A stretch of DNA of 28,279 bases, from IMG/VR virus record IMGVR_UViG_3300042465_005697, positions 1 to 28,279 of that record; one strand, 5' to 3'. Both the position numbers and the translations under genes were made by a program. This document shows, in pieces, positions 293 to 28,244 of this stretch. The notes under the pieces are model-generated. The model saw only the letters and a program-made list of their open reading frames with translations, made no database searches and had not been told where the DNA came from. The first letter of the stretch is position 1. Every line of letters begins with the position of its first letter. This DNA comes from a virus. Taxonomy: Duplodnaviria > Heunggongvirae > Uroviricota > Caudoviricetes.

Positions 293-952
293 ATGAAATC
301 GTTAATTAGAAGAGTATTACTAGAAGAGACCAAAGAACGTGATTATAATAAGATGCTTAAACTTGCGACAAACTATATTAAAAATGTGGGTCTAAATGGT
401 TTATGTAATGTTAAATTGGTTAAAAGTGATGTAGATATTATTGGTGTAATATTTACTCAGGGACATATTGGAGATACTAAATTACATAATTTGGAAGGGA
501 TATTGAAAAAAATATTTCACATTAGTTTTATATTAGTTGAGTATTGGAAAAGTAGTTGTTCGGAATTTGATGTATTACAGTTGGATGAAGGACGTATTGT
601 TGGGAAAATTCTAAAGGAGGAAATAATGGAAAGCGTTAGAGACAGATTGGTCTTAAAGTGGTTAAACAAGGAGTTTGGTGATTTAACTGAGGTGGTTAGG
701 GATGACAGAACATTTTATGTTGATAAGGACCGAAAACCGTTATTTTTCTATTACCAAGATTTAAAAAATGGGTATGTTTATGTAAATAACAAAAGAATTT
801 GGGTATTTTTTAAAGACATTTTTGGTCTGAAAAAATTGCAAACAAAGGAGATACTGAAGGTGTGGTTGGACCAGACCTATAATTTGAGGGGACTCACACC
901 GTATATAGATCGTTCACCATTTCCATTAAATTGGAACAGACCTATAATTTAA
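293..952 (+). CDS. hypothetical, class A tag, two domains with internal tag
   Basis: MKSLIRRVLLEE; internal KILKEEIMES precedes a KWLNKEFG...IFGL...W domain. Confidence 0.85.
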   Translation: MKSLIRRVLLEETKERDYNKMLKLATNYIKNVGLNGLCNVKLVKSDVDIIGVIFTQGHIGDTKLHNLEGILKKIFHISFILVEYWKSSCSEFDVLQLDEGRIVGKILKEEIMESVRDRLVLKWLNKEFGDLTEVVRDDRTFYVDKDRKPLFFYYQDLKNGYVYVNNKRIWVFFKDIFGLKKLQTKEILKVWLDQTYNLRGLTPYIDRSPFPLNWNRPII

Positions 953-964
953 AATAATATAAAA

Positions 965-1429
965 ATGAAGGAATTAATTAGACATATATTAAAGGAGGAA
1001 ACATCATTACATACCAGATTATTAAAAATGATTAATAATGGTGATTTTTTAACTGCAATTAGATCTGTTGGTGGTTATGGTAATTTAAGAAAGATAATGA
1101 AGGGAATTGACTATCTTTCTAAGGATGTTATGGTTGATACGATTAAAGGGGTTTTGGAAGGTAAAGGGTCTCTTGGTCTTTATGAATTGGGGATAACTCC
1201 AATAACCATAAGAACTATTGGTAACGAAGAACATCATATTGAAGCAATATCGGACAATGGTCTTATTATTGATGTTTATGTTGATTATGATTTGGATGAT
1301 GGTGATGAAACTATTGATAGTTATAGTTTGAGTTATGAGGATATTAAAAGAAATGATTTATTTGAGTTATTTGATGCTATAATTGAATATTATGAGGATT
1401 ATAGTGATGATGAAAACGATCATATGTGA
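965..1429 (+). CDS. hypothetical, class A tag plus VGG module
   Basis: MKELIRHILKEETS; AIRSVGGYGNLRKI; acidic C-terminus. Confidence 0.85.
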   Translation: MKELIRHILKEETSLHTRLLKMINNGDFLTAIRSVGGYGNLRKIMKGIDYLSKDVMVDTIKGVLEGKGSLGLYELGITPITIRTIGNEEHHIEAISDNGLIIDVYVDYDLDDGDETIDSYSLSYEDIKRNDLFELFDAIIEYYEDYSDDENDHM

Positions 1430-2211
1430 TGAGAGAATTAATTAAACATATATTAAAGGAGGAAACAATTGACTTGTCGCAAAGTCTTATGAGACTTTTT
1501 GAAAAAACATTAATTAAACAGAATAGTGATGAATTATGTTCTATATCTGTGGAACAATTGGGTAAACATTATTCTGTTACTTTATTTATTAAAATTGGTG
1601 TTTTTACAAATGTAAGAGAGAAATTGATGAATGATGCTTGGAATATGGTTTATGATGTTACTGGTAAGTCTTCTGCGATATACCAAAAGGATTGTGAAAA
1701 AAAAGATAACATTAGGGAAGAAACTGATCAAGTAGAGGATAATAAATTATCGTTGAAGAATAAGTTAAAAACCATTAGAGATAATTTCGGGATTGAACAT
1801 GCAATTAAGATTACTGGTGGGCTTGAAAATTATGTTAAAATATTTTTTAATAGTAATTTAAAGGATTACTATAAAGAAAGTGGTATTGAACCATACAGAA
1901 TATCTTCAGAACCCAACTTATTTATTGATGACTTAATTGTTCAGTCGTTAGAATTACCTGATGTCTCACCAAAAGAAAAAAGTTTATATAATTTTGTTTG
2001 GGAGAGTGGAGGTACTAAATATAGATTCACGGCAAGATTATATTTGGTTGAATATGCTAGTGGGATAAAAATGTGGAGAGTTGTTGGGTCTAGTGGTGAT
2101 TCGGGGTTTGGTTATAGTTATATAACAAAAAAAAACACATTAGGAAAAAGAGCAAGAATGCAGATATTCAAACAGGTAATAGATAAATTAAAACTTGACG
2201 ATTATAAATGA
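1429..2211 (+). CDS. hypothetical, class A tag, two domains
   Basis: ATG 1429 overlaps upstream TGA; MRELIKHILKEET; internal NIREET then AIKITGG module. Confidence 0.85.
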   Translation: MRELIKHILKEETIDLSQSLMRLFEKTLIKQNSDELCSISVEQLGKHYSVTLFIKIGVFTNVREKLMNDAWNMVYDVTGKSSAIYQKDCEKKDNIREETDQVEDNKLSLKNKLKTIRDNFGIEHAIKITGGLENYVKIFFNSNLKDYYKESGIEPYRISSEPNLFIDDLIVQSLELPDVSPKEKSLYNFVWESGGTKYRFTARLYLVEYASGIKMWRVVGSSGDSGFGYSYITKKNTLGKRARMQIFKQVIDKLKLDDYK

Positions 2212-2534
2212 AGGAATTGATTAGACATATATTACAGGAAGATGTTAATCGTAAGTTGCTCAAACCTATTAAAAACTATGTAAATGGGATTATTCAACAT
2301 ATGGATGAACTGAAAGGTGAAGTATGTGAAGTTCTGGTTCAGATGGATGGTGATGTAATTGTTATTGATCTTTATGTTAATGATGAACATTACGAATTAT
2401 TGGATCAGGAGTATTCGTTGTATAATGTTAGTAGAAAAATGGACTACAATATTAGTAAAACGTTCGGAATAAAACGAAATAAATTAATTACTTATATTGA
2501 AAAATGTTCCACAAAAAGAGAATATTACGATTAA
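2208..2534 (+). CDS. hypothetical, class A tag
   Basis: MKELIRHILQED; ATGA-type overlap with upstream gene. Confidence 0.8.
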   Translation: MKELIRHILQEDVNRKLLKPIKNYVNGIIQHMDELKGEVCEVLVQMDGDVIVIDLYVNDEHYELLDQEYSLYNVSRKMDYNISKTFGIKRNKLITYIEKCSTKREYYD

Positions 2535-2591
2535 TAACAAATTAATTTATTATCAACGCACAATATATATAATTGTAATGAAATAATTTAC

Positions 2592-2599
2592 TATCTTTG
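2592..2599 (+). promoter_or_regulatory. Bacteroidota -7 box
   Basis: TATCTTTG in the intergenic gap before ATG 2623. Confidence 0.65.
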
Positions 2600-2622
2600 T
2601 ATATATAAAAAACTTAATTATT

Positions 2623-3395: not shown

Positions 3396-3396
3396 T

Positions 3397-3669
3397 ATGA
3401 AAAAATTAATGTTATTATGTGTGTTATTTTTATTCTCTTGTAATGATGGGGATAATGTGACAATTACTAACTCGGAGTATAAAAAATTAAGAGGAGACAC
3501 TTTAGTTCCAGAATATCCAAAGACAGTATATGTTCCAAGTGATGCTGGTGATAATACTCCTTATTTTGAGGTATGGTTAGGTAGTGATGGGCATGAGTAC
3601 CAACTACACGTAGAATCTCACGTAAGGAATCAATGGGTTCATTATGGTGGTTGTAAAAAATGTGATTAA
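3397..3669 (+). CDS. putative lipoprotein
   Basis: MKKLMLLCVLFLFSC lipobox-like signal; C-terminal HYGGCKKC. Confidence 0.7.
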   Translation: MKKLMLLCVLFLFSCNDGDNVTITNSEYKKLRGDTLVPEYPKTVYVPSDAGDNTPYFEVWLGSDGHEYQLHVESHVRNQWVHYGGCKKCD

Positions 3670-3685: not shown

Positions 3686-3693
3686 TATTTATA
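3686..3693 (+). promoter_or_regulatory. TATTTATA motif
   Basis: 7 nt before ATG 3701. Confidence 0.65.
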
Positions 3694-3700: not shown

Positions 3701-4486
3701 ATGAAAGAACTGATTAAACAGATCATCAAGGAAGAAACTTCCACACAAACAAAATTAATGACTTTAATTAAAAAATTTGGTGTTGATTATGGCGCCAAGG
3801 CGGTTGGTGGGTATGATAGACTGACAAAAATAATGGAAGGAACCGATTTTTTGTATGTTAAACTTGATGTTAGTCCTGAATATATTCATCATTATCTTAG
3901 TGGTAATAGAAGATGGGGTAAAAAAACATTATATGAGGTGATATTAGAGGATCCGTGGGAAATACATTATTGGAGTGAATATGATGTTGAAAATTTAATG
4001 GACGATATTGATGAGGTAAATTTAAATAACATTAGGTCAATATTATCCGAAGATAATGATGAAGATTTAAGTGATGTATCTATTGATAATCTACTTGAAT
4101 ATGACACATTTGGTCATATAACTGATGCGATAAACAACGCAGCAAATACTGTTGATGGCGATGCGTATGGTGATTATTTATATAATCAATTAAAAAAGGC
4201 GTTTGAGGAATATGGTGGTGAAGTATACTCTATGGACGATGAGGGTGTTACGTTTAGCGTTAATTTATCAAAATATTTAAAGGATCTAACTGATGAAGAA
4301 TATGGATACTATCGTGATGTGTGTCAGGATAATTATGTATGTATGTTTAATGAAATGGTATATGATGATGGAGGAACAATTGATAAACCAGAACCTTACT
4401 TTGATGAAAATTGGTATAATTATGATCTTAATAAGACTCAATTTAACGAGATATTGTATGAAAACCTATCGGAACATTTAAATTAA
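3701..4486 (+). CDS. acidic hypothetical, class A tag plus VGG module
   Basis: MKELIKQIIKEETS; GAKAVGGYDRLTKI; D/E/Y-rich. Confidence 0.85.
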   Translation: MKELIKQIIKEETSTQTKLMTLIKKFGVDYGAKAVGGYDRLTKIMEGTDFLYVKLDVSPEYIHHYLSGNRRWGKKTLYEVILEDPWEIHYWSEYDVENLMDDIDEVNLNNIRSILSEDNDEDLSDVSIDNLLEYDTFGHITDAINNAANTVDGDAYGDYLYNQLKKAFEEYGGEVYSMDDEGVTFSVNLSKYLKDLTDEEYGYYRDVCQDNYVCMFNEMVYDDGGTIDKPEPYFDENWYNYDLNKTQFNEILYENLSEHLN

Positions 4487-4490
4487 TGAT

Positions 4491-5108
4491 ATGAAAGATA
4501 TAATTAGAAAGGCATTACACGAAGAGATCCAACGAAGATATAGGAGGGTTACACCTGAGTTATTGGATAGGTTAAGAAGATATTTATCAATCTTACTTAA
4601 AGGGGTTAAAATTACAACATTTGGACCCGAACACACTTATGGTGATATAAGAACTCAATTCTGTAAAAATAATCAATTTATTATGACGGTTATTTTTAAT
4701 GTTAAGGATCATGACGACGAAGAGGACTATCAGGATAATGCCTCGTTACATATAAGTAGAAGTATTTTATCACAGATTCTAAGTACTTTTAATATTAAAG
4801 AAAAATTTGCACTTGAGATTATTGCCGAATATGTAGAAGATAATTATGTTGAGGATATCTCAAAAGAATATGATCTTAACATTTATGATATTGATAGTTC
4901 CGATGTTAGCGATGTTAGTAAGTGTAGACAAAAAGTAATGGACAATCCTCCTGAGTTATCAAAAGAAGATATGATTGAGTGGTTGGTTATAAATCAAAAA
5001 ACCTTCCGTCGCCCTGAGATTGAACGATGGGATGATAAGGACCTTAGATACTGGTACCGTCGTGATTGGATCCGTAATAAAGCCAATGAATTAGGTTATG
5101 ATTATTAA
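4491..5108 (+). CDS. hypothetical, class A tag
   Basis: MKDIIRKALHEE; 205 aa; ends before a terminator. Confidence 0.85.
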   Translation: MKDIIRKALHEEIQRRYRRVTPELLDRLRRYLSILLKGVKITTFGPEHTYGDIRTQFCKNNQFIMTVIFNVKDHDDEEDYQDNASLHISRSILSQILSTFNIKEKFALEIIAEYVEDNYVEDISKEYDLNIYDIDSSDVSDVSKCRQKVMDNPPELSKEDMIEWLVINQKTFRRPEIERWDDKDLRYWYRRDWIRNKANELGYDY

Positions 5109-5158: not shown

Positions 5159-5175
5159 TTTGTGCTATATCTTTG
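5144..5175 (+). promoter_or_regulatory. Bacteroidota-type promoter overlapping terminator
   Basis: GTTG-N20-TATCTTTG. Confidence 0.7.
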
Positions 5176-7011: not shown

Positions 7012-7320
7012 ATGGGTAAGTTATTAAAATATATTGACTCTTTATTTAAAGGGAATGGTCTAAATAATTGTGAGGTTATTTCATTTGGTGATGGATATAT
7101 TATTGAGATAAATATAGATTGTAGTAACAAATTGATCTTTGGTCCACTTAAATCTGTGTTAATGAGAAGACATACTAACATAGTTAATGAACTATTGTCA
7201 AGATATCCAAATATAGAATATAGAATTAGCTTTAACGATATTAATATCCCACATAGTAAATTACAAACAAAAATAGATAGGGGGGTTATATTAGAACCTC
7301 AATTTTCGTCATATGTTTAA
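7012..7320 (+). CDS. hypothetical, tandem paralog 1 of 3
   Basis: LLKYIDSLFKGNGLNNCEV. Confidence 0.75.
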   Translation: MGKLLKYIDSLFKGNGLNNCEVISFGDGYIIEINIDCSNKLIFGPLKSVLMRRHTNIVNELLSRYPNIEYRISFNDINIPHSKLQTKIDRGVILEPQFSSYV

Positions 7321-7585
7321 TTTAACGAATTATATTTATTCTCAATTAAAAGGTAGAGGGTTATCTTTTGAAATGTGGGATGTAACATATGAAGATGGGG
7401 TAAATATTATAACTTTGATTTTGGATTGTGAGTTTAATTATATTGTAACTTCGGATCATCTGCCGTACTACCAGAATGAGATGGTTTTAAGGTGTAAAAA
7501 TATATTTGGTGGAGTTTTACCTGAAGGATCATATGTGACTAAGGTTGTGGTAATTAATGAGAGAAAAAATAAAGAAACAATATAA
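7313..7585 (+). CDS. hypothetical, tandem paralog 2 of 3
   Basis: LTNYIYSQLKGRG...LPEGSY. Confidence 0.75.
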   Translation: MFNLTNYIYSQLKGRGLSFEMWDVTYEDGVNIITLILDCEFNYIVTSDHLPYYQNEMVLRCKNIFGGVLPEGSYVTKVVVINERKNKETI

Positions 7586-7809
7586 TGAAATATGGGTTAA
7601 CGAATTATATGAAATCAATCTTAATTGGGAATGAGTTTGATGAATGTGATGTTACATATGATAATGGGGTATATGTTATAACATTATATCTTGAGAATGA
7701 TGAATATTATAGTAATTTATTGGTCGATACTTTGAAAAGATATTGTGGGTGTTTATTTTCTTACTTACCTGAAGGATCATATAAAACTGATGTTAAATGT
7801 AGGGAATAA
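7585..7809 (+). CDS. hypothetical, tandem paralog 3 of 3
   Basis: LTNYMKSILIGNE...LPEGSY. Confidence 0.75.
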   Translation: MKYGLTNYMKSILIGNEFDECDVTYDNGVYVITLYLENDEYYSNLLVDTLKRYCGCLFSYLPEGSYKTDVKCRE

Positions 7810-8439: not shown

Positions 8440-8586
8440 ATGGCAACAATTTATAAAGTGGAGGTTGTGTCGTATTGGTGTAGTTATACGAAAGAACAAC
8501 TTGAGAAGATATTACAAGATGCGGTCAATAAAATTGAAAAAGAAAAGGGAAACGAAATTAATATAACGGTAAAAGAAAGATTATGA
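8440..8586 (+). CDS. 48-aa hypothetical (not in track)
   Basis: MATIYKVEVVSYW...KERL; ATGA overlap with 8583. Confidence 0.65.
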   Translation: MATIYKVEVVSYWCSYTKEQLEKILQDAVNKIEKEKGNEINITVKERL

Positions 8587-9014
8587 AAAATTTATTATAT
8601 ATAACATTATTAGTATTATCATTATTTTCCTGTGATATTACCGAAAAGAAATATGGGAAAACGGAGAGCATTTATCTCAGACAATTGGTTAAAACCGATG
8701 AGGTGACCAAGAGTGGATCGGCAAGTTATTTTTTGGTTACTGGATCCGCATCATATAGTGAAGATGTGGAGACCAAAATTAAATTAATGGGAAAGGTTAA
8801 TGGGTTTTATAGGTTAATAGAATTCAATTTTGAGGATGTAAGAATCAAGATAGATAATACGATTGGTCGTCCATATTTGTATATTAATTATCAGGATTAT
8901 AATAAACTTAGTGTGGCGAAACTATTGACCTATGATAGATACTCAATTAGATCATATGTTATTGTATGTCCTGAAAAGTATTTGCCCGAACAGTTATTAC
9001 CAATAACGTTATAA
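8583..9014 (+). CDS. putative lipoprotein
   Basis: MKNLLYITLLVLSLFSC lipobox-like signal. Confidence 0.75.
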   Translation: MKNLLYITLLVLSLFSCDITEKKYGKTESIYLRQLVKTDEVTKSGSASYFLVTGSASYSEDVETKIKLMGKVNGFYRLIEFNFEDVRIKIDNTIGRPYLYINYQDYNKLSVAKLLTYDRYSIRSYVIVCPEKYLPEQLLPITL

Positions 9015-9290: not shown

Positions 9291-9298
9291 TATTTATT
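9291..9298 (+). promoter_or_regulatory. TATTTAT motif
   Basis: TATTTATT 3 nt before ATG 9302. Confidence 0.65.
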
Positions 9299-9301: not shown

Positions 9302-9799
9302 ATGAATCTAAAAGAATCTATAAGAAAGGTGTTAAGGGAAGAGGAGGATATTAACATATTTGGACATAACTATAATGAATTATTGGGTAATATAACAAGT
9401 TCTGATTCAGGATTAATGTATACTGATCCTGAAGATTTATTAAAACAAAAAATTAAGTTTCTTAAAAAAATTGAAAAGAAAAACTCAATAAAACTTTTTA
9501 GGGTTGTATTTTCAAAATCAAAAAAGAAAATTAACATAAAAAAGTTGGGTCACCACTATGTTTATGATATTGATGACTTTCACGAACAAATGTTAGATTA
9601 TTTATATTATAATGCAAAGAGAAAAGATTCAAGTTTAGAAGAAGATGATGTTTGGGTGGTGGAAATAGAAACACCAACAAGTAATATTGATTATTCCGAA
9701 ACAATATTAACATATTCATTACATCCAAAAGAGGATGAAATTACAATTAAATATCCTAATAATGTTAAAATAATAAATATTTCCAAATATTATGAATAA
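9302..9799 (+). CDS. hypothetical, class A tag
   Basis: Start moved to MNLKESIRKVLREE (track extension crosses the terminator). Confidence 0.85.
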   Translation: MNLKESIRKVLREEEDINIFGHNYNELLGNITSSDSGLMYTDPEDLLKQKIKFLKKIEKKNSIKLFRVVFSKSKKKINIKKLGHHYVYDIDDFHEQMLDYLYYNAKRKDSSLEEDDVWVVEIETPTSNIDYSETILTYSLHPKEDEITIKYPNNVKIINISKYYE

Positions 9800-10139
9800 C
9801 CTACAGGAGAACATAAGAAAGGTGTTAAGGGAAGATAGTGGTCTTCTACCCATGATACGACGCAGAGTTACTCAGGACCATTTAGAGAAAGAATTTATAG
9901 AATCTTTAGATATGGCATCAGAAATGTTAGATATGAGTTATCAAAGAAGTGGTGGTGTTATGGGTTTAGATAGGTTTATAAGTATCACAATATCAATTTT
10001 AATGGATGGGATCCATTATGAAATATTTAGTACAACACCATTAGATTCCGAATGGTATGGTGATGTTACAAGAAGTTTAAAAAACTATTTCAGATCTAGA
10101 ATTATTACAAGACATTCCCAAATAACAAGAAAATTATGA
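9792..10139 (+). CDS. hypothetical, class A tag, RR-domain-like
   Basis: MNNLQENIRKVLRED; MIRRRV. Confidence 0.8.
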   Translation: MNNLQENIRKVLREDSGLLPMIRRRVTQDHLEKEFIESLDMASEMLDMSYQRSGGVMGLDRFISITISILMDGIHYEIFSTTPLDSEWYGDVTRSLKNYFRSRIITRHSQITRKL

Positions 10140-10555
10140 ACATAAAAGAGAACATAAGAAAAGTATTAAGGGAAGAGAGCTCCCTTAAAAAAAGTGTTAG
10201 AAACTTGGTAAAAACCAAGGGATTTTTTATGGCATCACAGATAGTGGGATCATTAGAAAGGGTTTATGAAATACTTAATTTAAAAGGAACGCAAGATGAT
10301 ATGATCTTTATTGTGACTGCGATATTAGATCACGACATAAAAGAAAAGATATGTAAATTTTTTATGGTAAAAACGTATCATTCTATAAAGATATATATTG
10401 AGGTACCTTCAGAAGATCCTGATAGTGATTATTTTGATCCTATAAATAAAAATGCACGTCGTAGGTTTGGGGATAAAATTAGTATTGCTATTTATGAATT
10501 AGGAAATAAACTTGTTAGGGGTCACGACATAAACATTCAACCAGGAAGTTGTTAA
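10136..10555 (+). CDS. hypothetical, class A tag plus VG(G/S) module
   Basis: MNIKENIRKVLREE; ASQIVGSLERVYEI. Confidence 0.8.
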   Translation: MNIKENIRKVLREESSLKKSVRNLVKTKGFFMASQIVGSLERVYEILNLKGTQDDMIFIVTAILDHDIKEKICKFFMVKTYHSIKIYIEVPSEDPDSDYFDPINKNARRRFGDKISIAIYELGNKLVRGHDINIQPGSC

Positions 10556-16572: not shown

Positions 16573-16592
16573 TATCCGTATATTTATCTAAT

Positions 16593-16982: not shown

Positions 16983-17015
16983 TTAACTTTTTATTTTATC
17001 ATATATTTATTGTAT

Positions 17016-17312
17016 ATGAAATTTATTATCACCGAAAATCAAAATGTTTTGTTAAGACGATATCAAGTGGTTAAAGATGAGGTATTAAAACAAATGAATA
17101 TTTATAACCCTTGTTATTACAATGATTATTTTGATTTTAATAAATACAAATCGGATATGATACATTCCTCAATTAATGAGGTTGTGGGTGATTTGGGTAT
17201 TGACGAAAGATCATTGGATCATTTCAGGAATGAATTATCGTCTAACTTAAATGGTATCATTAGAAGATACTATAATAAATATCTTAAGGAGAACTGTCGT
17301 CCAAGATGGTAA
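17016..17312 (+). CDS. RR/PCxY family, class C tag
   Basis: TATTTATT 4 nt upstream; MKFIITENQNVLLRR...NPCYY. Confidence 0.85.
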   Translation: MKFIITENQNVLLRRYQVVKDEVLKQMNIYNPCYYNDYFDFNKYKSDMIHSSINEVVGDLGIDERSLDHFRNELSSNLNGIIRRYYNKYLKENCRPRW

Positions 17313-17339
17313 TTATATGTGGGGGTATATTTATCTAAT

Positions 17340-17720
17340 ATGAAAAACATCATTAAACAAATACTTACGGAAACTGTGATGGATAAACTCATTAGTGATG
17401 TATTCCCCCAACTTAATGATTTAAAAACCAAATCCAATCATAACGCAACAATATATGGTATAAACACGGTTTATTACAACAAAGATGATAAGGAATATTA
17501 CTTTAGGGTTTCTGAACCAAGAAATCAATGGGTTATGAATTGGGATACTGATAAAGTTGATGATAAAATGAGGCCAAAGACATTATGGGTTAATGGTGGG
17601 GTTTATGATGAAATATTAAATTATCTTCCCAATAAGGATATGATTTTAAAATGGTTTAATGAGAAGTATAATCAGGATGCTGAAATAATTATCCGTAGAT
17701 CCCCACTTAAAGGTAGATAA
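17340..17720 (+). CDS. hypothetical, class A tag
   Basis: TATTTATC 4 nt upstream; MKNIIKQILTE; ILKWFNEKY. Confidence 0.8.
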   Translation: MKNIIKQILTETVMDKLISDVFPQLNDLKTKSNHNATIYGINTVYYNKDDKEYYFRVSEPRNQWVMNWDTDKVDDKMRPKTLWVNGGVYDEILNYLPNKDMILKWFNEKYNQDAEIIIRRSPLKGR

Positions 17721-17746
17721 ACATATATTTATAACTAAAAGATAGT

Positions 17747-17995
17747 ATGAAAAAAATTATAAAACTTACAGAATCAGATTTAACAAGGATTGTTAAACGT
17801 GTGTTAAAGGAAAGTTTTATGGAAGAAAGGGATTATGATTACATTATGGAAATCTTGTCAAACGACGGACTACATCCCAATCATGGGTGGTTTGATGAAT
17901 TTGAGAATTCAAGGTTCTATGATGAAGATATGACTGACGACAAATATGCCGAATCAATATATGATTTTATAATTCACGGAGATAACGAATATTAA
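17747..17995 (+). CDS. acidic hypothetical, class B tag
   Basis: TATTTATA at 17726; MKKIIKLTESDLTRIVKRVLKES. Confidence 0.85.
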   Translation: MKKIIKLTESDLTRIVKRVLKESFMEERDYDYIMEILSNDGLHPNHGWFDEFENSRFYDEDMTDDKYAESIYDFIIHGDNEY

Positions 17996-18027: not shown

Positions 18028-18049
18028 GTTTTCCATATATTTATTGTAT

Positions 18050-18412
18050 ATGAAATTTATTATCACGGAGAGTCAGTCATTAAGAATGGGTAGGTTTATT
18101 ACTGAAGAGAATATTCCCACCGAAACTGACTACTTACATTGGAAGTTACCAAAAAAATTAATTGATGAATTGGGAATTGAATTATGGGATGATGGTGACT
18201 CGGCTTATATTGAGGAGATTCATTTTGACACAAGGAGGGTTTTTATTATGTTATTCCGCAATACCGATGGTATGGAAGAACTGTACGATCACGTTCCCAC
18301 CATACCAGGAGATTTTAAGGATAGTTATTTGATTCGTATTGATGATCTACCACAAAGTGTTAAAAACTTTATTTCAAGAAGATTAAAATATGATTATGCT
18401 AAACACCTATAA
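18050..18412 (+). CDS. hypothetical, class C tag
   Basis: TATTTATT 4 nt upstream; MKFIITESQ. Confidence 0.85.
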   Translation: MKFIITESQSLRMGRFITEENIPTETDYLHWKLPKKLIDELGIELWDDGDSAYIEEIHFDTRRVFIMLFRNTDGMEELYDHVPTIPGDFKDSYLIRIDDLPQSVKNFISRRLKYDYAKHL

Positions 18413-18415
18413 GAT

Positions 18416-18751
18416 ATGAAAGTTATTATAACCGAATCACAATTTAATGACCTGTTCTTTAAACGGAGGTTTGCCCAAATTAATTCACTTGTTGAGGAAA
18501 AGATGGTTTATTACCCCCCTTGTGATTATACCTATGATCCGTATTATGGTTTTCACGAGTACTATGGTGATGTTCGTAACGCAGTTATTTACAATTTCAT
18601 TACTGAAAATATTCGGTTAGATTGGGAAGAAGGTAATATGAGTAAGATTGAAGATCTATCTGAAACTATGAATGAATGGATGTATGAAATATTCTATGAT
18701 AAGGTTAGGGGATATTTTGATGGGGTTATGGAAAAAGGTTGTGAAGAATAA
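18416..18751 (+). CDS. RR/PCDY family, class C tag
   Basis: MKVIITESQ...FKRR...PPCDY. Confidence 0.85.
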   Translation: MKVIITESQFNDLFFKRRFAQINSLVEEKMVYYPPCDYTYDPYYGFHEYYGDVRNAVIYNFITENIRLDWEEGNMSKIEDLSETMNEWMYEIFYDKVRGYFDGVMEKGCEE

Positions 18752-18776
18752 TATTTAATGTTATATTTATAATCAT

Positions 18777-19103
18777 ATGAAAATCATTATCACAGAAAAC
18801 CAAAACTATATTCTTAGACGACTTCAACAATTTATTGAGATTGTTGAAGATCGGATTTTTGAGTATGGAAGAGAAGATAATCCTTGGTGGTGTTCGGCTT
18901 TTTATACTCCCGACATATTTTTTAATAGTTTTAGATCTAATTCTATTGAAGATTTTATTAATCAGAATTGGGATTTCTTTCACAATGATTCTGAAATGGG
19001 TGGTTCCGATATGGATATTTCTATTTTGGATGATTTCATTGAAAACAACTACGGTAACCATCTAAGAAATCTTTGGGTGAGTAGGTGTCAAACCAAACGA
19101 TGA
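18777..19103 (+). CDS. RR family, class C tag
   Basis: TATTTATA 5 nt upstream; MKIIITENQNYILRR...WCSAF...YGNHLRNLWVSRC. Confidence 0.85.
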   Translation: MKIIITENQNYILRRLQQFIEIVEDRIFEYGREDNPWWCSAFYTPDIFFNSFRSNSIEDFINQNWDFFHNDSEMGGSDMDISILDDFIENNYGNHLRNLWVSRCQTKR

Positions 19104-19426: not shown

Positions 19427-19456
19427 ATTTGTAAATATAGTTATATTTATTGATAT

Positions 19457-19759
19457 ATGAAAATCATTATTACTGAAACCCAAGATAAACAAATTCGTTC
19501 ATTTATACGACGAATTGGTATTGCAGATGAAATTATTTCTAAATTGAACCCTAAAGACATTTGTAAATATTGGGACAATACCGAAAATGATGCGTTACAT
19601 TTTTCTGACGATATAATTGTGGGTATAGTTTGGGAAATTAATGATACCCTTAATATTAATTCGTACCACAATAAGGATCTATATAAATTTTTTGAGGATA
19701 TTGGTTATTACGACAAACTAATAAAATTTTTTCATAAATCTTTTGAATCATGCGAATAA
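19457..19759 (+). CDS. RR family, class C tag
   Basis: TATTTATT 5 nt upstream; MKIIITETQ...FIRR...DICKY. Confidence 0.85.
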   Translation: MKIIITETQDKQIRSFIRRIGIADEIISKLNPKDICKYWDNTENDALHFSDDIIVGIVWEINDTLNINSYHNKDLYKFFEDIGYYDKLIKFFHKSFESCE

Positions 19760-20073
19760 TCATAACCGAAACCCAAAAAGAATTATTGGATTATAATAGG
19801 TTATCTAACTGCGTTAAACGAAGATTGGAGCTTAATGTTCTTGATGAAACGGTTATATCTATTATGGACGAACTACCTGTTTCTAGATTCTCATTATCAA
19901 ATTTTGTTGATACGATAATAGATTACCTATATGAAAAACTTGAAACAATAAGTAATTTTGAAATATGTTGGGGAGATGAATCATATTACCAATTTTCAAC
20001 ATCAATTAAACGATTTTTAACCTCAAGATATGAGGACACAATAACAAAATATTATAAAACCTATTATGTTTGA
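19750..20073 (+). CDS. RR family, class C tag
   Basis: MRIIITETQ...VKRR. Confidence 0.8.
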   Translation: MRIIITETQKELLDYNRLSNCVKRRLELNVLDETVISIMDELPVSRFSLSNFVDTIIDYLYEKLETISNFEICWGDESYYQFSTSIKRFLTSRYEDTITKYYKTYYV

Positions 20074-20380
20074 TAGTCAAAATTTCTTCATTAGAAGATT
20101 ACCCAGTATTATTAATTATGTTGAATTGGACATTGAAGAGGTTGAATCCGATGAAAATGGACATAATATGTGTAGTTATTACACTATTGATAGTTTTGTT
20201 TATTCTTTTGTTCAGACAACGATGGATAAATTTGCTGACGATAACGTCCAATTCTTTAATAATCGTGATGGTATGGTGAGATTTACAGATGAAGAAAAGG
20301 AATTCTTTGTTAACATCATAAATAAAAACTACGGAAACTACCTTAGAAATTTATATGTTAGGTTGTGTGGGCATAAATAA
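20066..20380 (+). CDS. RR family, truncated tag
   Basis: MFDSQNFFIRR...MCSYY...YGNYLRNLYVRLC; paralog of 18777. Confidence 0.8.
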   Translation: MFDSQNFFIRRLPSIINYVELDIEEVESDENGHNMCSYYTIDSFVYSFVQTTMDKFADDNVQFFNNRDGMVRFTDEEKEFFVNIINKNYGNYLRNLYVRLCGHK

Positions 20381-20403
20381 ATTATATTGTATATTTATCA
20401 AAT

Positions 20404-20892
20404 ATGTCTTACCCAATTAAATCTATTGAAAAAATCTTTAACACTCTTGGTCACCATAAGATTAAGGATTTATATGGTCTTGATTTAACTTTTAATATTG
20501 TTGATATTGAGGTACTTTCCAATATAATAAATATTAAAGTTAATTTTATTGGAGATTTACCCTATATATTTAGGAATCTAAGTGTTGGTGATGATGAGTG
20601 GAGTATAACTAGGTACCATGACCGTCAACATATTACAAAGATATTGGGAGATATTTTAAAATATGTTGGTATAAACAATGGTTTTGTTAGTATGGAATAT
20701 GAACCTAACACCAACGAATGTTCTAAAACGGGATATTTAACTGGTGTCGGTTGGACTATATGTCTTGATAATGGAATGTTGGATCCATTCATGCCCGATA
20801 GACGTAAATTATTAAGTAATGCAATCTCAGGTAGATGGTGGGATAGTTTATCAACAAAAGATAAAAAGATGTTAAAATCTAATTTTGGATAA
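20404..20892 (+). CDS. hypothetical protein
   Basis: TATTTATC 4 nt upstream; 162 aa. Confidence 0.8.
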   Translation: MSYPIKSIEKIFNTLGHHKIKDLYGLDLTFNIVDIEVLSNIINIKVNFIGDLPYIFRNLSVGDDEWSITRYHDRQHITKILGDILKYVGINNGFVSMEYEPNTNECSKTGYLTGVGWTICLDNGMLDPFMPDRRKLLSNAISGRWWDSLSTKDKKMLKSNFG

Positions 20893-21503
20893 TGAAAATA
20901 ATAATAACTGAATCTCAAAAAGATAAATTATTTAACATCTTTAATAAGTTGTTAAATGATCTTATGGATAACATTAAGGTTGATTCTGAAGATTGGGGAT
21001 TGGGTGAGATGGACGAATTGGATGAGGTTAATTCTGTCGATCATATTGGCGTTGATAGAGTTGTTACCTTTGATGGTATTAAGGTTTATGTTAATCTATA
21101 TGTTAACAAGGAAAGGGATAGTTGGGATAATGTTTGGTCGGAGATTCAATATAGAGTTAATCAACATATACCCCACGCAAAGATTGTTTTAAACGATGTT
21201 ATTGTTGAACAGGAGATGGGATCTTTAAATGAATCTAAAGATAGAAACTTTATTAATCGCAGGATTCATTTAATTGATGACGAATTTAATAGGTCAATTG
21301 ATTTATTTAATCCGAGAGACTTTTTTGATTTTGATGACTACCAATTTTCATTGGTTAATTCCTCAATACATCGGGCAATGGCAGATAAAAAATCTTTTGG
21401 TATTACAAAGAAAGATAATCAATGGATTCCCACTTATGAACTTTTCCGTGATTATTTAAGGGATAAATATATTGATGAAATGAAAAAAAGATTTTATTTG
21501 TAA
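20892..21503 (+). CDS. two-domain protein, class C tag, internal LNES then RR domain
   Basis: MKIIITESQ...GSLNESKDRNFINRR. Confidence 0.85.
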   Translation: MKIIITESQKDKLFNIFNKLLNDLMDNIKVDSEDWGLGEMDELDEVNSVDHIGVDRVVTFDGIKVYVNLYVNKERDSWDNVWSEIQYRVNQHIPHAKIVLNDVIVEQEMGSLNESKDRNFINRRIHLIDDEFNRSIDLFNPRDFFDFDDYQFSLVNSSIHRAMADKKSFGITKKDNQWIPTYELFRDYLRDKYIDEMKKRFYL

Positions 21504-21519
21504 ATAATGATTTAAGAAA

Positions 21520-21864
21520 ATGAAAATAATAATAACTGAATCTCAAAATAAACTTCTATGGTTACGTAGAAGATTAGGTGTTCCTGAAATAATGGATACC
21601 TTAAAGGATATTGTTATTGAGGGTTTTGATTATACCGATCCTTGTGATTATGAAACTTATTATAGTTATGAAACTAACGTGGCAAATGATTCTGCAATAA
21701 CATTTATTAATTCATATATTGAACTTTATGGTGAAGAACATTTTGATTCAACTGAACTTGAGGGTTTTGTTCGTGAATTAGTTATTAGTAAGTACCGTCA
21801 CTTAATTAAAGGAGAATGGAGGAATCGTAATTGTAATGATGATGAATATGAATCGGATTATTAA
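21520..21864 (+). CDS. RR/PCDY family, class C tag
   Basis: MKIIITESQNKLLWLRRR...DPCDY. Confidence 0.85.
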   Translation: MKIIITESQNKLLWLRRRLGVPEIMDTLKDIVIEGFDYTDPCDYETYYSYETNVANDSAITFINSYIELYGEEHFDSTELEGFVRELVISKYRHLIKGEWRNRNCNDDEYESDY

Positions 21865-21877
21865 CTATTTATAAAAT

Positions 21878-22249
21878 ATGAAAATTATTATCACCGAAAA
21901 TAAGATTGAATTGGCAATTATTAAGTATCTAAACACTCATTATAATGTTGATGAGATTCATTCTAACCCATTTCACGATGATTATGGTGATCCTACAGAT
22001 GATGCAATAGAATATTATAATGGAGACTATTTTGAGGATGACTACGGACCTTTCACATTATATAAGGAGTCTTATTGGGTAAATGATGATGATCCTAAAA
22101 AGGAATTATCACCATTATTAATAATTGAGGACGAGAGTTTTTATCAGAGTCTTAACTCTATGTTTGGACCATATTGGGAACCCGTATTTAAGAAGTGGTT
22201 TGAAGATAATTTTGGTGAAAAAATAAAAACTATTGAACTCACCCGTTAA
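21878..22249 (+). CDS. acidic hypothetical, class C tag
   Basis: TATTTATA 4 nt upstream; MKIIITENK...FKKWFEDNFG. Confidence 0.85.
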   Translation: MKIIITENKIELAIIKYLNTHYNVDEIHSNPFHDDYGDPTDDAIEYYNGDYFEDDYGPFTLYKESYWVNDDDPKKELSPLLIIEDESFYQSLNSMFGPYWEPVFKKWFEDNFGEKIKTIELTR

Positions 22250-22256
22250 AATTGTT

Positions 22257-22451
22257 ATGGAAATCATTATAACCGAACAACAATATAGATCACTAAATGA
22301 GATGATTAACCTTGATATTAAGGTTGGTGATACATTGTTGGGTGGTAAATTTAAAAACAAGAAGGTTGTTGTTAAAAAAATCGGAAAAAATGATAAGGGG
22401 GATATTACAATTAACGGAAAACCGTTATTAAGGTTTAGAATAATTTCTTAA
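22257..22451 (+). CDS. small basic beta-rich domain, class C tag
   Basis: Start moved to MEIIITEQQ; LDIKVGDTLLGGKFKNKKVVVK. Confidence 0.75.
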   Translation: MEIIITEQQYRSLNEMINLDIKVGDTLLGGKFKNKKVVVKKIGKNDKGDITINGKPLLRFRIIS

Positions 22452-22477: not shown

Positions 22478-22485
22478 TATCTTTG
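22478..22485 (+). promoter_or_regulatory. Bacteroidota -7 box
   Basis: TATCTTTG 7 nt before ATG 22493. Confidence 0.7.
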
Positions 22486-23591: not shown

Positions 23592-23613
23592 ATGTTTATG
23601 ATATTTATATGGT

Positions 23614-23946
23614 ATGAAGAAAAAACTTTATAATTTAATGGATCGGATGTTTAACTTTATACCTGAAGAGGGCAAAGATAACGGTAGATATGATATTTTT
23701 TTTAATGCAGATAAAGAACCATTAATAATTATAGACACTCAAGATAACGATATATCTTTTTCTAACCCCCATATTACCACCGTAATGAGAATTATGGGTA
23801 TTAATGATGCTAAGGAATTATTTGGAAAAAGTGAAGGTGTAGATTTAAATGATTATATACTTGAATGGGCAAAGCAAAGGTTTAAAGGTTATTACGAAAT
23901 AAACGATTGGTATATGTCTGGTGACTTATTGGATTATTTAAATTAA
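23614..23946 (+). CDS. hypothetical protein
   Basis: TATTTATA 4 nt upstream; ILEWAKQRF. Confidence 0.8.
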   Translation: MKKKLYNLMDRMFNFIPEEGKDNGRYDIFFNADKEPLIIIDTQDNDISFSNPHITTVMRIMGINDAKELFGKSEGVDLNDYILEWAKQRFKGYYEINDWYMSGDLLDYLN

Positions 23947-23949
23947 AAT

Positions 23950-24237
23950 ATGAAAATTGTTATAACAGAAAATCAACGTCACTTGTTGAGAAGACATAAG
24001 GAAATTGAAGATGAGATATATAGTCAATTACTGGGTTATGGATATCTTCCCCATAATCTTGAGAGTTTTATGGGTGAGATAACTTGGGATGTGGGATCAA
24101 CTCTTGCCGGTAAAATGATCCCTAACGTGGTTGGGGGTGACTATGTAACCTTAAGAAATCAAATCATCCACTACATTAGAAATAATTTTTATGATGAATT
24201 AAAAGAGTATTGGGAAAGTCGCCAACCAAGATATTAA
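23950..24237 (+). CDS. RR family, class C tag
   Basis: MKIVITENQRHLLRR. Confidence 0.85.
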   Translation: MKIVITENQRHLLRRHKEIEDEIYSQLLGYGYLPHNLESFMGEITWDVGSTLAGKMIPNVVGGDYVTLRNQIIHYIRNNFYDELKEYWESRQPRY

Positions 24238-24741: not shown

Positions 24742-24764
24742 TTGGAATATTTATAGGTAATATT

Positions 24765-25484
24765 ATGAAAAAAAAGATAATTGAGAAAATATTAACTTTA
24801 GTCCAACGAAAATATCCGTTTGTTAAAAATTTAAAGAGTTTAAAGACTAAATACAATTATGATACTTGGAGTGTACTTGTTGATAAAGACAAATACTTGG
24901 ATTATTTTAACGCTACTGAGGATATGTTGGATACTGATTTGGTTGTTGGGTATGTTGATAGATTTCTTCAAATGAAATATTGGGATAGTGATTTACAGAA
25001 TCTTGGAGCTGAGATTGATAAATATATTGGTGGTGTTATAAAAATAATTATTGGTTCATACCCCAAAATAAAAGATCTTGAATTTGAGAGTATCGGATCA
25101 TATTATATGGATAAAAAACAAAAACAAATGGAACATAATTTAAGTAAAATAATAAAGAGGGTCATTAAGGAATCCGAATTAACTCATTACGCAAGAAGGA
25201 TCCAAGAATTGAGGGATTTAATAAACAATCAAGTTGAGATGCAAGATCCTTGTAATTTTGAGGATGGTGATGAGTATGCTGATTTTTGTATCTCAACAGG
25301 TATGGGTTGGTTTTTTGGGTTTGATCCGTGGAGTGATACTGATTATAGTGATGACGAAGAAGTGGTTAGACCAACTAATCCTGATATTAGTGTTGACGAT
25401 TATAATAAAATAAATACTGAGATGACCAATGAGTTCTATGATGATCTTGTTGCGTTGTGGGATGAATATTCTGAAGAATGTTAA
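24765..25484 (+). CDS. two-domain fusion: KYPFV domain, internal tag, RR/PCNF domain
   Basis: TATTTATA at 24748; internal MEHNLSKIIKRVIKES then YARR...DPCNF. Confidence 0.8.
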   Translation: MKKKIIEKILTLVQRKYPFVKNLKSLKTKYNYDTWSVLVDKDKYLDYFNATEDMLDTDLVVGYVDRFLQMKYWDSDLQNLGAEIDKYIGGVIKIIIGSYPKIKDLEFESIGSYYMDKKQKQMEHNLSKIIKRVIKESELTHYARRIQELRDLINNQVEMQDPCNFEDGDEYADFCISTGMGWFFGFDPWSDTDYSDDEEVVRPTNPDISVDDYNKINTEMTNEFYDDLVALWDEYSEEC

Positions 25485-25486
25485 AT

Positions 25487-25831
25487 ATGAAAAAAATTAT
25501 AAAATTAACTGAGTCAGATCTAGTTCGTATTGTAAAACGAGTTATATCGGAGGCAAATGTTGGATACGTTAAAGGAACTCGTGGGATTGAATCCGAAGTG
25601 TTTTCAAATGTATTAAAGAAATACATTGAGATTGTACCAGAAATGAAAGTCACAATTGAACCAATAATAAATTCAAACCCCCTTGAGGTTAAGTGGAAAG
25701 ATAGACAAATAATTAAGGATGCCTTTGGTAAAGTTGAGGAATGGTGTCACAATAACAACGATGATGTGTGTGGTGAAGTACTTGATTATACCGCAGGTGA
25801 TAGATCAACAATTGTAAATTTAATACCATAA
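25487..25831 (+). CDS. hypothetical, class B tag
   Basis: Start moved to MKKIIKLTESDLVRIVKRVISEA. Confidence 0.85.
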   Translation: MKKIIKLTESDLVRIVKRVISEANVGYVKGTRGIESEVFSNVLKKYIEIVPEMKVTIEPIINSNPLEVKWKDRQIIKDAFGKVEEWCHNNNDDVCGEVLDYTAGDRSTIVNLIP

Positions 25832-25896: not shown

Positions 25897-26490
25897 ATGG
25901 AAGAAAAAAAATTAAAAGAAGAACTTTTTAGAGAAATAAAAAGAAGAGGTCTAATGGAACAGGAAGATGATTCCGAAAATGAAACTGAAGAAGAAGGTGA
26001 TGGCAAATTGTATAAATTAAACAGTAAGACCATTAAAATCTTAACAGATAGAATTAAAGATGAGTACACCGCACACTATTTTTATAGAGCAGCAACGAAT
26101 TGGTGTAGAGATAAGAACTACAAGAAAGCTGCAGAATTTTTTAATAATGAGGCGGATGATGAATTAACTCACGCAAAGAAACTTCAAGAATATATGACAG
26201 ATTTTAATATCATCCCTGTCATCCCACAAGCACCGATTGATCATAAATTTGATGGTTTAATTGAAATTATTTATGGGGCATATAAAATGGAATTGGCATT
26301 GATGAAAGCATATAATGAAAATTCAAAAGATTTGTTCTCGGATGATATGACAACATTTGACTTCTTAGGTGAATTTAGAGAGATCCAAAAGGGTGCGGTT
26401 GTTGAATATAACGACTTAATTAACGGAAGTGAATTGGTCGACACCAAAGACAAATTCCAAGTATTATACTTTGAACAAACTTATTTCTGA
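25897..26490 (+). CDS. ferritin-like protein with N-terminal extension
   Basis: DEYTAHYFY, FFNNEADDELTHAKKLQEY, AYKME, TTFDFLGEFREIQ match non-heme ferritin (FtnA-like) helices. Confidence 0.85.
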   Translation: MEEKKLKEELFREIKRRGLMEQEDDSENETEEEGDGKLYKLNSKTIKILTDRIKDEYTAHYFYRAATNWCRDKNYKKAAEFFNNEADDELTHAKKLQEYMTDFNIIPVIPQAPIDHKFDGLIEIIYGAYKMELALMKAYNENSKDLFSDDMTTFDFLGEFREIQKGAVVEYNDLINGSELVDTKDKFQVLYFEQTYF

Positions 26491-26510
26491 TAAGAATAAA
26501 ACCTACTACG

Positions 26511-26539
26511 AACCCCATCCTCAGCAGGTGGGGTTTTTT
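26511..26539 (+). terminator. intrinsic terminator
   Basis: ACCCCATC-ctcagca-GGTGGGGT then T run. Confidence 0.8.
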
Positions 26540-26694
26540 AATGTTTTGTTAATACTCACATAACATACTTTCAACATTTTATGCCTATATATTGTATATG
26601 GTAATATTTTCACTAATAAGCGTGTCATTCATTTTAAGAACAATATTAAAAGATCGTAAGGATTATTTTAAATTCATAAATAAATAAATTCATT

Positions 26695-26710
26695 TATCTT
26701 TGTATTTATG
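26695..26710 (+). promoter_or_regulatory. adjacent TAnnTTTG and TATTTAT motifs
   Basis: TATCTTTG-TATTTATG-aat-ATG. Confidence 0.6.
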
Positions 26711-26713
26711 AAT

Positions 26714-27163
26714 ATGGAGATCACCGAAAAACAAGAAAAGGGTATTGAATTATTAATAAAAGGTTTAAGACGAAAGTTTCCTTTTATTCTTGGTGTGGAA
26801 ATTAGAGAAATAACGGAATTCCATATTTGGGTGGTTATTATCGTTGAATTTACTAGGTTTTTAAAATTCTATAATGTACCACCAAGTCGTTTCCATTTAA
26901 AATATGGGTTAGAAACTAGTAAAGAATATTTTGAGGGTTATAAAAACCCGGGATATTTAATGGGGTTAGTTGATGAAGACCATAAAGATGAATTTGGTAA
27001 CGAATATAACAATAAAATGGAGAATTTTTTGAGTGGGCTATATAACTCATTACCGGAAGAATATACACTACAATATAATGGTAGAGCCAATTTGATACAA
27101 ATATGGGGTTACCAAATAGAAGTAGATGTGGATGGAGAATTCCCCACCCACACCGATTCTTAA
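26714..27163 (+). CDS. KFPFI-domain hypothetical, short class C-like tag
   Basis: MEITEKQEKG...RRKFPFI; start could also be 26708. Confidence 0.75.
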   Translation: MEITEKQEKGIELLIKGLRRKFPFILGVEIREITEFHIWVVIIVEFTRFLKFYNVPPSRFHLKYGLETSKEYFEGYKNPGYLMGLVDEDHKDEFGNEYNNKMENFLSGLYNSLPEEYTLQYNGRANLIQIWGYQIEVDVDGEFPTHTDS

Positions 27164-27585
27164 CCAATACTTATAATTTCCAAATCAAAGATTAGTTTTT
27201 TTCCTGATAACGGATGGTTAGCATCAAGGATAACTACCTCATCCTTAACTTCAAGAACTTTCGCATTAACAGGACCTTGTGGTGTCATTGCTTGTAACAT
27301 TTCGCCAGCTTGAACTCCTTCAGGAACTTGTGTTCTTGGAACTTCATTTACCATTTGATCATTTGGGTGACCATATGCCTCTTCAGGACTAATTTCTACA
27401 GTCTTCTTTTCACCGATTTCCATATCAATTAAACCATTTTCAAATCCTTTAATTAAAGATCCTTCACCCAATTTAACGGTGATAGGTTCTCTACCTTCAT
27501 CCAACGATGAGTCAAAAACTGAACCATCTTCCAATTTTCCTGTGTAATGTACTGTTACAACATCACCATTTTGTACTTTTCCCAT
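27160..27585 (-). CDS. slyD: FKBP-type peptidyl-prolyl isomerase, short SlyD/FkpB type
   Basis: VTVHYTGKLEDGSVFDSS, LIKGFENGL, PEEAYG, LDANHPLSGKKLIFDLEI; IF domain present, no His-rich tail. Confidence 0.9.
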   Translation of the reverse strand: MGKVQNGDVVTVHYTGKLEDGSVFDSSLDEGREPITVKLGEGSLIKGFENGLIDMEIGEKKTVEISPEEAYGHPNDQMVNEVPRTQVPEGVQAGEMLQAMTPQGPVNAKVLEVKDEVVILDANHPLSGKKLIFDLEIISIG

Positions 27586-27656
27586 ATTTTATTTGTTTTT
27601 TATAAGTGTAGAAATATTTTTTTGTAATGTAAAATGTTTTTGTAGTATTTATTAAT

Positions 27657-28244
27657 ATGAATTCACCAAGTCGTAATAAAATTAAACAAATCTTAAGGGA
27701 AACATTGTTTTATACTCCATCGGAAAAAATGAAGAACTCAATGTTTAAGTTATGGGATAAACAAAAATCTAAAGGATTAAAGCCCGAGGTGAATACCGCA
27801 TTGGCAAAATCTATGGGATTACACAGTACCTCAATGTTGAATGATTGGGTTGTTGAGTGGTATGGTGGTGTTGACGTGGTGTTTGGTATGATTAAAGAAG
27901 ATTTAGACAACAAAACTTTTACTACAGATGAATTAGGTAGTATATATCACGTTAATATTGGTAATTATGATTTTACATTTGAATTAACTAACCTTAAAAT
28001 GCGTAACCAACGGTCTCGTGATCCAGACATTAGTGTTGATATGGAAATACTTGATGGTGGGGTTGAGTTAATGACCGATGGTGAATATTATGATCTGACA
28101 AGAATTAACGAACCTGGATATATTTATGATGATTTATTGTGGGAGATTAAAATGGAAATAAAAGGGATTATTGAAGAATTTGCGTGGAAAGTTATTGGTC
28201 AATATAGATTCAATGCCGATTCGATTAGTGTTGAACTTATTTAA
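27657..28244 (+). CDS. hypothetical, class A tag
   Basis: TATTTATT 3 nt upstream; NKIKQILRET. Confidence 0.85.
   Translation: MNSPSRNKIKQILRETLFYTPSEKMKNSMFKLWDKQKSKGLKPEVNTALAKSMGLHSTSMLNDWVVEWYGGVDVVFGMIKEDLDNKTFTTDELGSIYHVNIGNYDFTFELTNLKMRNQRSRDPDISVDMEILDGGVELMTDGEYYDLTRINEPGYIYDDLLWEIKMEIKGIIEEFAWKVIGQYRFNADSISVELI

Follow-up and report, generated by a model that had tools for sequence, protein, structure and literature searches.

Short shared N-terminal peptides on small proteins of a T4-like phage as candidate capsid-targeting propeptides

The stretch of DNA analyzed here (the window) comprises bases 1-28279 of the 149,690-nt IMG/VR virus record IMGVR_UViG_3300042465_005697 (labeled G000), and many of the small proteins that it encodes begin with one of a limited set of short peptides containing a conserved Glu. 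These N-terminal tags are conserved as peptides, with selection acting at the peptide level. We favor the possibility, and consider it fairly probable, that they are capsid-targeting propeptides of the type of the phage T4 capsid-targeting sequence (CTS). The tag would be a short amphipathic peptide with the pattern h-x-x-h-h-x-E (h, hydrophobic; x, any residue) that binds the scaffolding core during prohead assembly, so that the attached protein is enclosed; a gp21-type serine protease would then cut after the Glu and free the body inside the head. The tag classes (A; C; B, which reads as C plus A; and D and E, found outside the window) would serve as interchangeable heads on fast-evolving small proteins. 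On these grounds we infer that the tagged proteins reside in the virion. They may also be ejected into the host, where some could have an anti-defense role, but the earlier proposal from the sequence only that they are delivered at infection is drawn purely by analogy.

The source is an uncultured T4-like phage of about 300 kb with a Bacteroidota host. We base this on a T4-type head module, on a complete relative (G001; 308,574 nt, terminal repeats, 100% complete) whose protease is 84% identical to that of G000, on a cultured Flavobacterium relative, on untagged genes that often follow TAnnTTTG, which we take to be the Bacteroidota -7 promoter element, and on lipoprotein-type signal peptides (..LFSC) in two small window proteins (3397-3669 and 8583-9014), one of which has a homolog in G001. 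The nearest cultured relative, Flavobacterium phage vB_FspM_immuto (NC_055915; hereafter immuto), has a capsid protein of 40% identity, and IMG/VR holds more than 590 related contigs. G000 itself is about 51% complete (CheckV); the window has a G+C content of 29-31% and nearly all of its genes lie on the + strand. A search of 50,697 phage records for cultured phages, by megablast with the window and by tblastn with the class B protein g58055, gave no match, and scans of the window for tRNAs and Rfam families were empty.

The tags and their common pattern

The sequence-only reading had listed 26 tagged genes in three classes. On retranslation 25 of them carry a tag: all 11 full-form class C genes and both class B genes are present as described, as are ten of the 12 genes assigned to class A, the other two (at 16593 and 17340) being looser variants only. 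The supposed short form of class C at 26714 (MEITEKQ; 26714-27163, +) drops out, for it shows no tag pattern, has the host-type promoter TAnnTTTG upstream and has a G001 homolog without the motif. Among the 205 open reading frames (ORFs) of the 150-kb record, with expected totals taken from shuffles, class C occurs 13 times at an N-terminus and never elsewhere (total expected 0.09), class A 16 times and once (0.52) and class B seven times and never (0). In all, the record has about 42 tagged ORFs; they lie on either strand and reach as far as 97 kb, well past the window. The tags are 7 to 22 amino acids (aa) long and end in ITE, LTE, LKE, LRE or IKE, that is, in an L/I-x-E protease motif; in class B both E9 and E22 are invariant. 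Two more classes, D (..SEK.RILEMH) and E (..INRIK.MMG), sit on larger proteins outside the window. Three large class E proteins (457-634 aa; record 45064-49843) have long hydrophobic stretches and a membrane-spanning look, and might be ejection or channel proteins. Tagged and untagged proteins did not differ in isoelectric point or length, and no paper turned up in a full-text literature search for the tag strings.

A single pattern lies beneath the classes. Classes A and C and the second half of class B all fit h-x-x-h-h-x-E followed by a polar residue, the first h of class C being Met1. Of its occurrences across the proteins of G000, 37 fall within the first 45 residues and 11 in all the remainder, an 11-fold difference in density. 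The N-terminal matches include the scaffold candidate (twice) and a core protein, g87933, while the capsid protein (VIKED at residue 20) and the protease (ILKES at residue 35) carry only the shorter tag core near their N-termini.

The codons of the tags point to selection on the peptide. As the sequence-only reading had noted, the two class B copies in the window differ mostly at synonymous sites (nine synonymous and three non-synonymous codons among 22). Over all pairs of identical residues in class C, the same codon is used in 52.9% (0.529) versus 0.526 expected from genome codon usage; for class B the figures are 56.5% and 50.0%, and the sole excess is found between adjacent class A paralogs (68% versus 52% expected). 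Because synonymous codons are at random expectation, homogenization of the DNA, which could otherwise have accounted for tag conservation, is removed as an explanation.

The tags also behave as modular add-ons: the same tag stands on unrelated bodies, and homologous bodies carry different tags or none. That the bodies belong to unrelated families held for the most part, the exceptions being a few paralog groups. BLAST sorts the 70 tagged proteins of G000 and G001 into 56 body clusters, of which 45 are singletons and four mix classes A and C. Several individual cases illustrate the point: (i) the gene at 293 encodes a two-module protein whose second half (aa 111-202) is homologous to a class C tagged protein of G001; (ii) the body of g40104 recurs in G001 after an internal NITE/S; and (iii) the immuto ortholog of g37829 lacks the 20-residue tag and linker and begins where those end. 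A Pfam search with about 30 tagged bodies returned nothing save one sub-threshold match, to the catalytic region of SLT (lytic transglycosylase) at record 67179-67943 (E 5e-4, 20.0 bits versus a cut-off of 21.3), in a protein tagged MKKKIVITEEE; an enzyme that cuts cell walls, if packaged, would be a fitting ejected protein.

Head proteins and competing explanations

A gp21-like protease, which the sequence-only reading had expected elsewhere in the genome, lies at 89.4 kb (record 89409-90137; Peptidase_S77, PF03420, E 7e-22). It belongs to a head module at 86-94 kb that has the T4 gene order: large terminase, a gp20-type portal (PF07230), two small genes, the protease, an extremely acidic scaffold candidate and a gp23-type capsid protein (PF07068) that matches solved T4 gp23 structures. 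PHROGs searches with the small head-module genes and with candidate late-transcription genes yielded nothing useful.

It had also been suggested that capsid and scaffold proteins would carry the same sites as the tags, and conserved h-x-E triplets that could serve as such sites are indeed present in the scaffold, in g87933 and in the putative capsid propeptide. We counted conserved [ILVM]-x-E triplets in ortholog sets drawn from related loci (34 to 54 unique sequences each; 34 to 52 for the scaffold and g87933), with triplets ending x-D, x-K and x-Q/N as controls. The scaffold has 11 (controls 2, 4 and 2, respectively) and g87933 has six (1, 5 and 2), whereas the portal (7 versus 10, 11 and 10) and the terminase (7 versus 5, 7 and 8) show no excess; for the core proteins against portal plus terminase, Fisher p is 0.005. 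In the scaffold and core sites the middle residue varies freely and the residue after the Glu is usually Ser, and g87933 conserves LTE/S and ITE/T, whose triplets are identical to those of classes B and C. In the capsid protein, five of the eight conserved sites fall within residues 1-60 out of 625 (p 4e-4), the last of them being LINE/ATSEGS.

Two tagged proteins encoded in the structural block, at 82561 and 96099 of the record, show what looks like a cleavage boundary. About 25 distinct N-termini among orthologs of g82561, 16 to 43 residues long and varied in sequence, all reach an h-x-E and then APV/I.Y; about 25 ortholog N-termini of g96099 end in LRE, LSE, IKE, INE, ITE or LFE, followed by ATS.SGS. 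In immuto, two proteins (NC_055915 25061-25456 and 111675-112139) have a 23-residue leader in common, MKKQILSEQF.RMQ.LAGIITE/S, and diverge right after it. About ten immuto proteins fit the unified tag pattern, where the strict class expressions had suggested none; among the ten are also proteins with ..LIKE/E and ..IIKE/A. Homology thus restarts exactly after an invariant Glu preceded by a free P2 residue, as a cleavage boundary predicts, which lends indirect support to cutting of the tags by the prohead protease.

The most serious alternative is that the tags are docking helices that are never removed and that bind a conserved non-capsid partner, which could be a hub protein of the phage or a target in the host, with h-x-E marking the end of an amphipathic helix. 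Its main support is that the motif recurs internally and C-terminally in multi-module proteins. Run against 1.84 billion proteins, a class B tag profile matched (E 1e-3 or better) 8,053 representative clusters. Within the top 150, all single-copy matches begin at residue 1-13, which speaks for modular tags, while about a third of the top matches have a second or third, internal copy. A marine contig (ENA ERZ11848503, also seen in a TARA sample) encodes several successive Cys-rich proteins, 110-725 aa long and without Pfam matches, that carry motifs of the class A, B and D types in N-terminal, internal and C-terminal positions. Also in keeping with docking, conservation of the class B motif equals that of the body across 299 orthologs, and class C fixes more residues than a cut site requires. 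Structure prediction is compatible with docking and, in showing the tags as separable add-ons, also counts for propeptides: in the AlphaFold model of g58055 the body is confident (predicted local distance difference test, pLDDT, about 80-87) and the class B tag is helical but at pLDDT 46-60, while the model of the class C protein g21878 (pLDDT 87 overall) has residues 1-3 below 50 and its first helix starting at Ile5. In neither model is the tag packed into the body fold. Foldseek searches of the PDB with both models gave no match at E 1e-3 or better. Docking does not predict, however, that the same h-x-E sites with a free P2 should occur in the scaffold, the core protein and the capsid propeptide, or that homology between orthologs should restart exactly after the Glu, and no candidate partner has been identified. 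We regard this explanation as unlikely, while rating it above the other alternatives. If the tags are propeptides, the internal and C-terminal copies would fit cleavable linkers or C-terminal propeptides, the latter being known from T4 Alt and gp21 (PMC9026906).

It is also conceivable that the tags are degrons or client tags for a phage-encoded Clp chaperone-protease system. What raises this idea is that genes for a ClpA/B-type double AAA+ ATPase (AAA_2, ClpB_D2-small), a small heat-shock protein and an FKBP are present in the clade, and one for ClpP in G001 (54098-54619); the ATPase gene is, moreover, flanked by class B and class D genes. Yet only three of five further tag-bearing large records have ClpP, the two without it being G007 (96% complete) and G008, which have class B genes, and immuto, with its proteins of the unified pattern, has neither ClpP nor a homolog of the Clp ATPase. 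Internal copies would be useless as terminal degrons and the invariant Glu would go unexplained, and we consider a Clp role improbable.

Slightly less probable still is that there is no signal at all and that the shared N-termini are simply inherited within one large, fast-diverging superfamily of paralogs. Paralogy is detectable among some of the class C and class A genes, and the codon identity of adjacent class A genes above expectation (0.68 versus 0.52) agrees with this. Simple inheritance does not account, however, for bodies that have decayed beyond the reach of BLAST while 7 to 22 tag residues stay near-invariant with randomized codons, for homologous bodies with different tag classes or none, or for tags that lie outside the predicted folds. 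A last proposal, that conservation acts on the nucleic acid or the translation start (a recombination cassette, a start enhancer for leaderless mRNA or a leader for a modifying enzyme), could draw on the short distance between a promoter-like motif and many tagged ATGs and on mRNAs that are perhaps leaderless, but we give it hardly any weight, with synonymous sites at random expectation and tags also present on promoterless internal genes of operons. Its radical-SAM maturase version is excluded, as neither G000 nor the complete G001 contains PF04055. Pure paralogy and nucleic-acid explanations both fail because of the codon and modularity data.

Tagged genes and promoter-like motifs in the window

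The tagged genes of the window, all on the + strand and all confirmed by retranslation, lie mostly in units headed by the motif TATTTAT on the same strand. In the 45 nt upstream of starts, TATTTAT is present 64 times in the orientation of the gene, versus 24 times for its reverse complement. It is found upstream of the terminase, protease, scaffold and tail genes and of nearly all tagged operons. Units headed by it include 34 of 42 tagged versus 71 of 163 untagged genes in G000 (p 1e-5), and 19 of 24 versus 8 of 39 in the window (p 6e-6). At 12 of the 13 tagged unit heads in the window the promoter-like TATATTTAT ends 4-8 nt before the ATG, and because this distance is so short the tagged mRNAs may be leaderless or nearly so; for structural genes the gap from the promoter-like motif to the start is about 12-22 nt. 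TAnnTTTG is often found upstream of untagged genes, with window sites at approximately 2592-2599, 5168-5175, 14218-14225, 22478-22485 and 26695-26702. Because untagged genes mostly follow this element, the window interleaves host-type (probably early) units with phage-type units.

Class A predominates in the first part of the window. The operon 293-2534, headed by TATTTAT at 281-287, consists of the genes at 293-952 (MKSLIRRVLLEE, 219 aa), 965-1429 (MKELIRHILKEE, 154 aa), 1429-2211 (MRELIKHILKEE, 260 aa) and 2208-2534 (MKELIRHILQED, 108 aa); in the first of these an internal tag-like junction, KILKEEIME/S (599-631), directly precedes the second homologous module. TATTTAT at 3686-3692 heads 3701-5108, with genes at 3701-4486 (MKELIKQIIKEE, 261 aa) and 4491-5108 (MKDIIRKALHEE, 205 aa; the G001 homolog is of class A too). 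The unit 9302-10555, headed at 9291-9297, holds the genes at 9302-9799 (MNLKESIRKVLREE, 165 aa; a longer ORF from 9266 runs through the promoter motif), 9792-10139 (..NIRKVLRED, 115 aa) and 10136-10555 (..NIRKVLREE, 139 aa). A further class A gene lies near the end of the window at 27657-28244 (..KIKQILRET, 195 aa), with TATTTAT at 27646-27652, 4 nt before its ATG; its body has a G001 homolog with a class C tag.

Between these lie the remaining classes. The loose class A gene at 16593-16982 (MKNVIKEILKRTLEN, 129 aa), which does not fit the strict pattern, the class C gene at 17016-17312 (MKFIITENQ, 98 aa) and the gene with an A/C hybrid tag at 17340-17720 (MKNIIKQILTET, 126 aa), whose G001 homolog has a class C tag, are each preceded by TATTTAT 5 nt before the ATG (16581-16587, 17004-17010 and 17328-17334, respectively). 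The first class B gene, at 17747-17995 (MKKIIKLTESDLTRIVKRVLKES, 82 aa), follows the motif at 17726-17732. Next, the unit 18050-18751 (motif 18038-18044) contains class C genes at 18050-18412 (MKFIITESQ, 120 aa) and 18416-18751 (MKVIITESQ, 111 aa), and the motif at 18764-18770 precedes the class C gene at 18777-19103 (MKIIITENQ, 108 aa). In the unit 19457-20380 (19444-19450) the class C genes are at 19457-19759 (MKIIITETQ, 100 aa) and 19750-20073 (MRIIITETQ, 107 aa); in 20404-21864 (20392-20398) they are at 20892-21503 (MKIIITESQ, 203 aa; the G001 homolog is likewise of class C) and 21520-21864 (MKIIITESQ, 114 aa); and in 21878-22451 (21866-21872) they are at 21878-22249 (MKIIITENK, 123 aa), which is folded in its AlphaFold model, and 22257-22451 (MEIIITEQQ, 64 aa). 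The last class C gene, at 23950-24237 (MKIVITENQ, 95 aa), belongs to the unit 23614-24237 (23602-23608). The unit 24765-25831 (24748-24754) comprises the untagged-looking gene at 24765, with an internal class B-type helix (IKRVIKES; 25152-25175, +), and the second class B gene at 25487-25831 (MKKIIKLTESDLVRIVKRVISEA, 114 aa).

Several untagged genes were noted in passing. Auxiliary genes of the window encode a ferritin-like/rubrerythrin protein (25897-26490, +) and an FKBP-type peptidyl-prolyl isomerase (27160-27585, -), and the gene at 11054-11542 (-) codes for a HAD domain of the RNA-repair kind called 'Swiss Army Knife'. Untagged paralogs stand in tandem at 7012-7809 (three genes, at 7012, 7313 and 7585) and at 14233-14923 (a pair, at 14233 and 14567, 63% identical). 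Elsewhere in G000 the ClpA/B-type ATPase and Hsp20 genes lie side by side (75024-77593).

Implications and comparison with known systems

A number of points weigh against the tags being capsid-targeting propeptides. They have no sequence similarity to the T4 CTS, except for 'MK' and the spacing. T4 has only a handful of tagged genes, whereas about 42 are found here in half a genome, and a cargo of 40 to 80 different proteins would go far beyond what T4 packages. The Thr or Ser at P2 of class C and its exact Met1 register are more constraint than a cut site needs, and a purely N-terminal address has no need of the internal and C-terminal class B copies seen in relatives. S77 is encoded in ten of ten tag-bearing large records tested, but this co-occurrence is weak evidence and amounts to a necessary condition, because every T4-like phage has S77. 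The association of TATTTAT with tags is weak and not significant in G001 (p 0.12), and late genes may not be the only ones that the motif marks, middle genes being the other candidates. Finally, all of the functional steps are inferred from sequence.

If the tags are nevertheless propeptides, a broader possibility, which we put forward tentatively and hold less firmly, is that the T4-like jumbo phages that abound in fresh and marine waters share a general code for loading the capsid, made up of a few interchangeable N-terminal peptides. Over 8,000 protein clusters, counting those with the class B tag alone, would then form a vast, unexplored repertoire that is packaged in heads and injected along with the DNA; some of these proteins would be made as tag-body-tag-body polyproteins and cut by the head protease. 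Were this true, sequence would suffice to read off which proteins uncultured phages inject. If the CTS-type reading itself is right, sequence by itself would list the proteins that these phages inject with their DNA or before it, prime candidates for anti-defense and host takeover, across an abundant lineage without a cultured member. Exchange of a modular tag of 7 to 22 residues would drive the turnover of capsid cargo, and the tags would offer natural short peptides with which foreign proteins could be loaded into Bacteroidota phage capsids. The idea is directly testable because the cultured immuto has a smaller tag set with the same pattern.

With regard to precedent, the closest comparison is the T4 CTS, MKTYQEFIAE (PMC8442874), in which genetics placed the targeting function at residues 4 and 7 and the processing function at residues 8 and 10 (PMC9026906). 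These functional residues and the unified tag pattern have the same i, i+3, i+4, i+6 spacing. In both cases a short N-terminal peptide begins with MK, with a register that is exact at Met1, ends in L/I-x-E and is common to unrelated, fast-evolving small proteins, in a genome with a head module of the gp20-gp21-gp22-gp23 type. Because only 'MK' and the h-x-x-h-h-x-E spacing are held in common, the tags are, as far as their sequences tell, an analog and not a demonstrable homolog of the CTS, the likeness being one of layout. There are also clear differences: T4 has one tag class, whereas here there are three to five or more, including a composite one (class B, 22 residues with two h-x-E sites); relatives of the present phage have internal and C-terminal copies; and the host here is a member of the Bacteroidota, in a system known from sequence alone.

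A second precedent comes from phiKZ, 201phi2-1 and SPN3US, in which head and ejection proteins are cut after S/A-x-E by a diverged gp21 homolog (PMC9026906, PMC5694885, PMC10052503). These too are large phages, rich in head-associated proteins; cleavage follows a Glu, little else determines it, and propeptide sites are redundant. Their propeptides are long, however, and are not short tags shared in identical form, and their P3 residue is small; the capsid protein of the present phage, in contrast to theirs, is of the canonical T4 type. The polymorphic internal-protein loci of T-even phages, where diverse internal-protein genes keep only the CTS (PMC3012670), offer a third comparison. There, as here, the tag is kept while the bodies turn over among close relatives, and few of the tagged bodies in the window have a homolog in G001. 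The T-even phages do this at one locus, whereas the tagged genes of the present phage occupy many small operons, on either strand, across a span of more than 90 kb.

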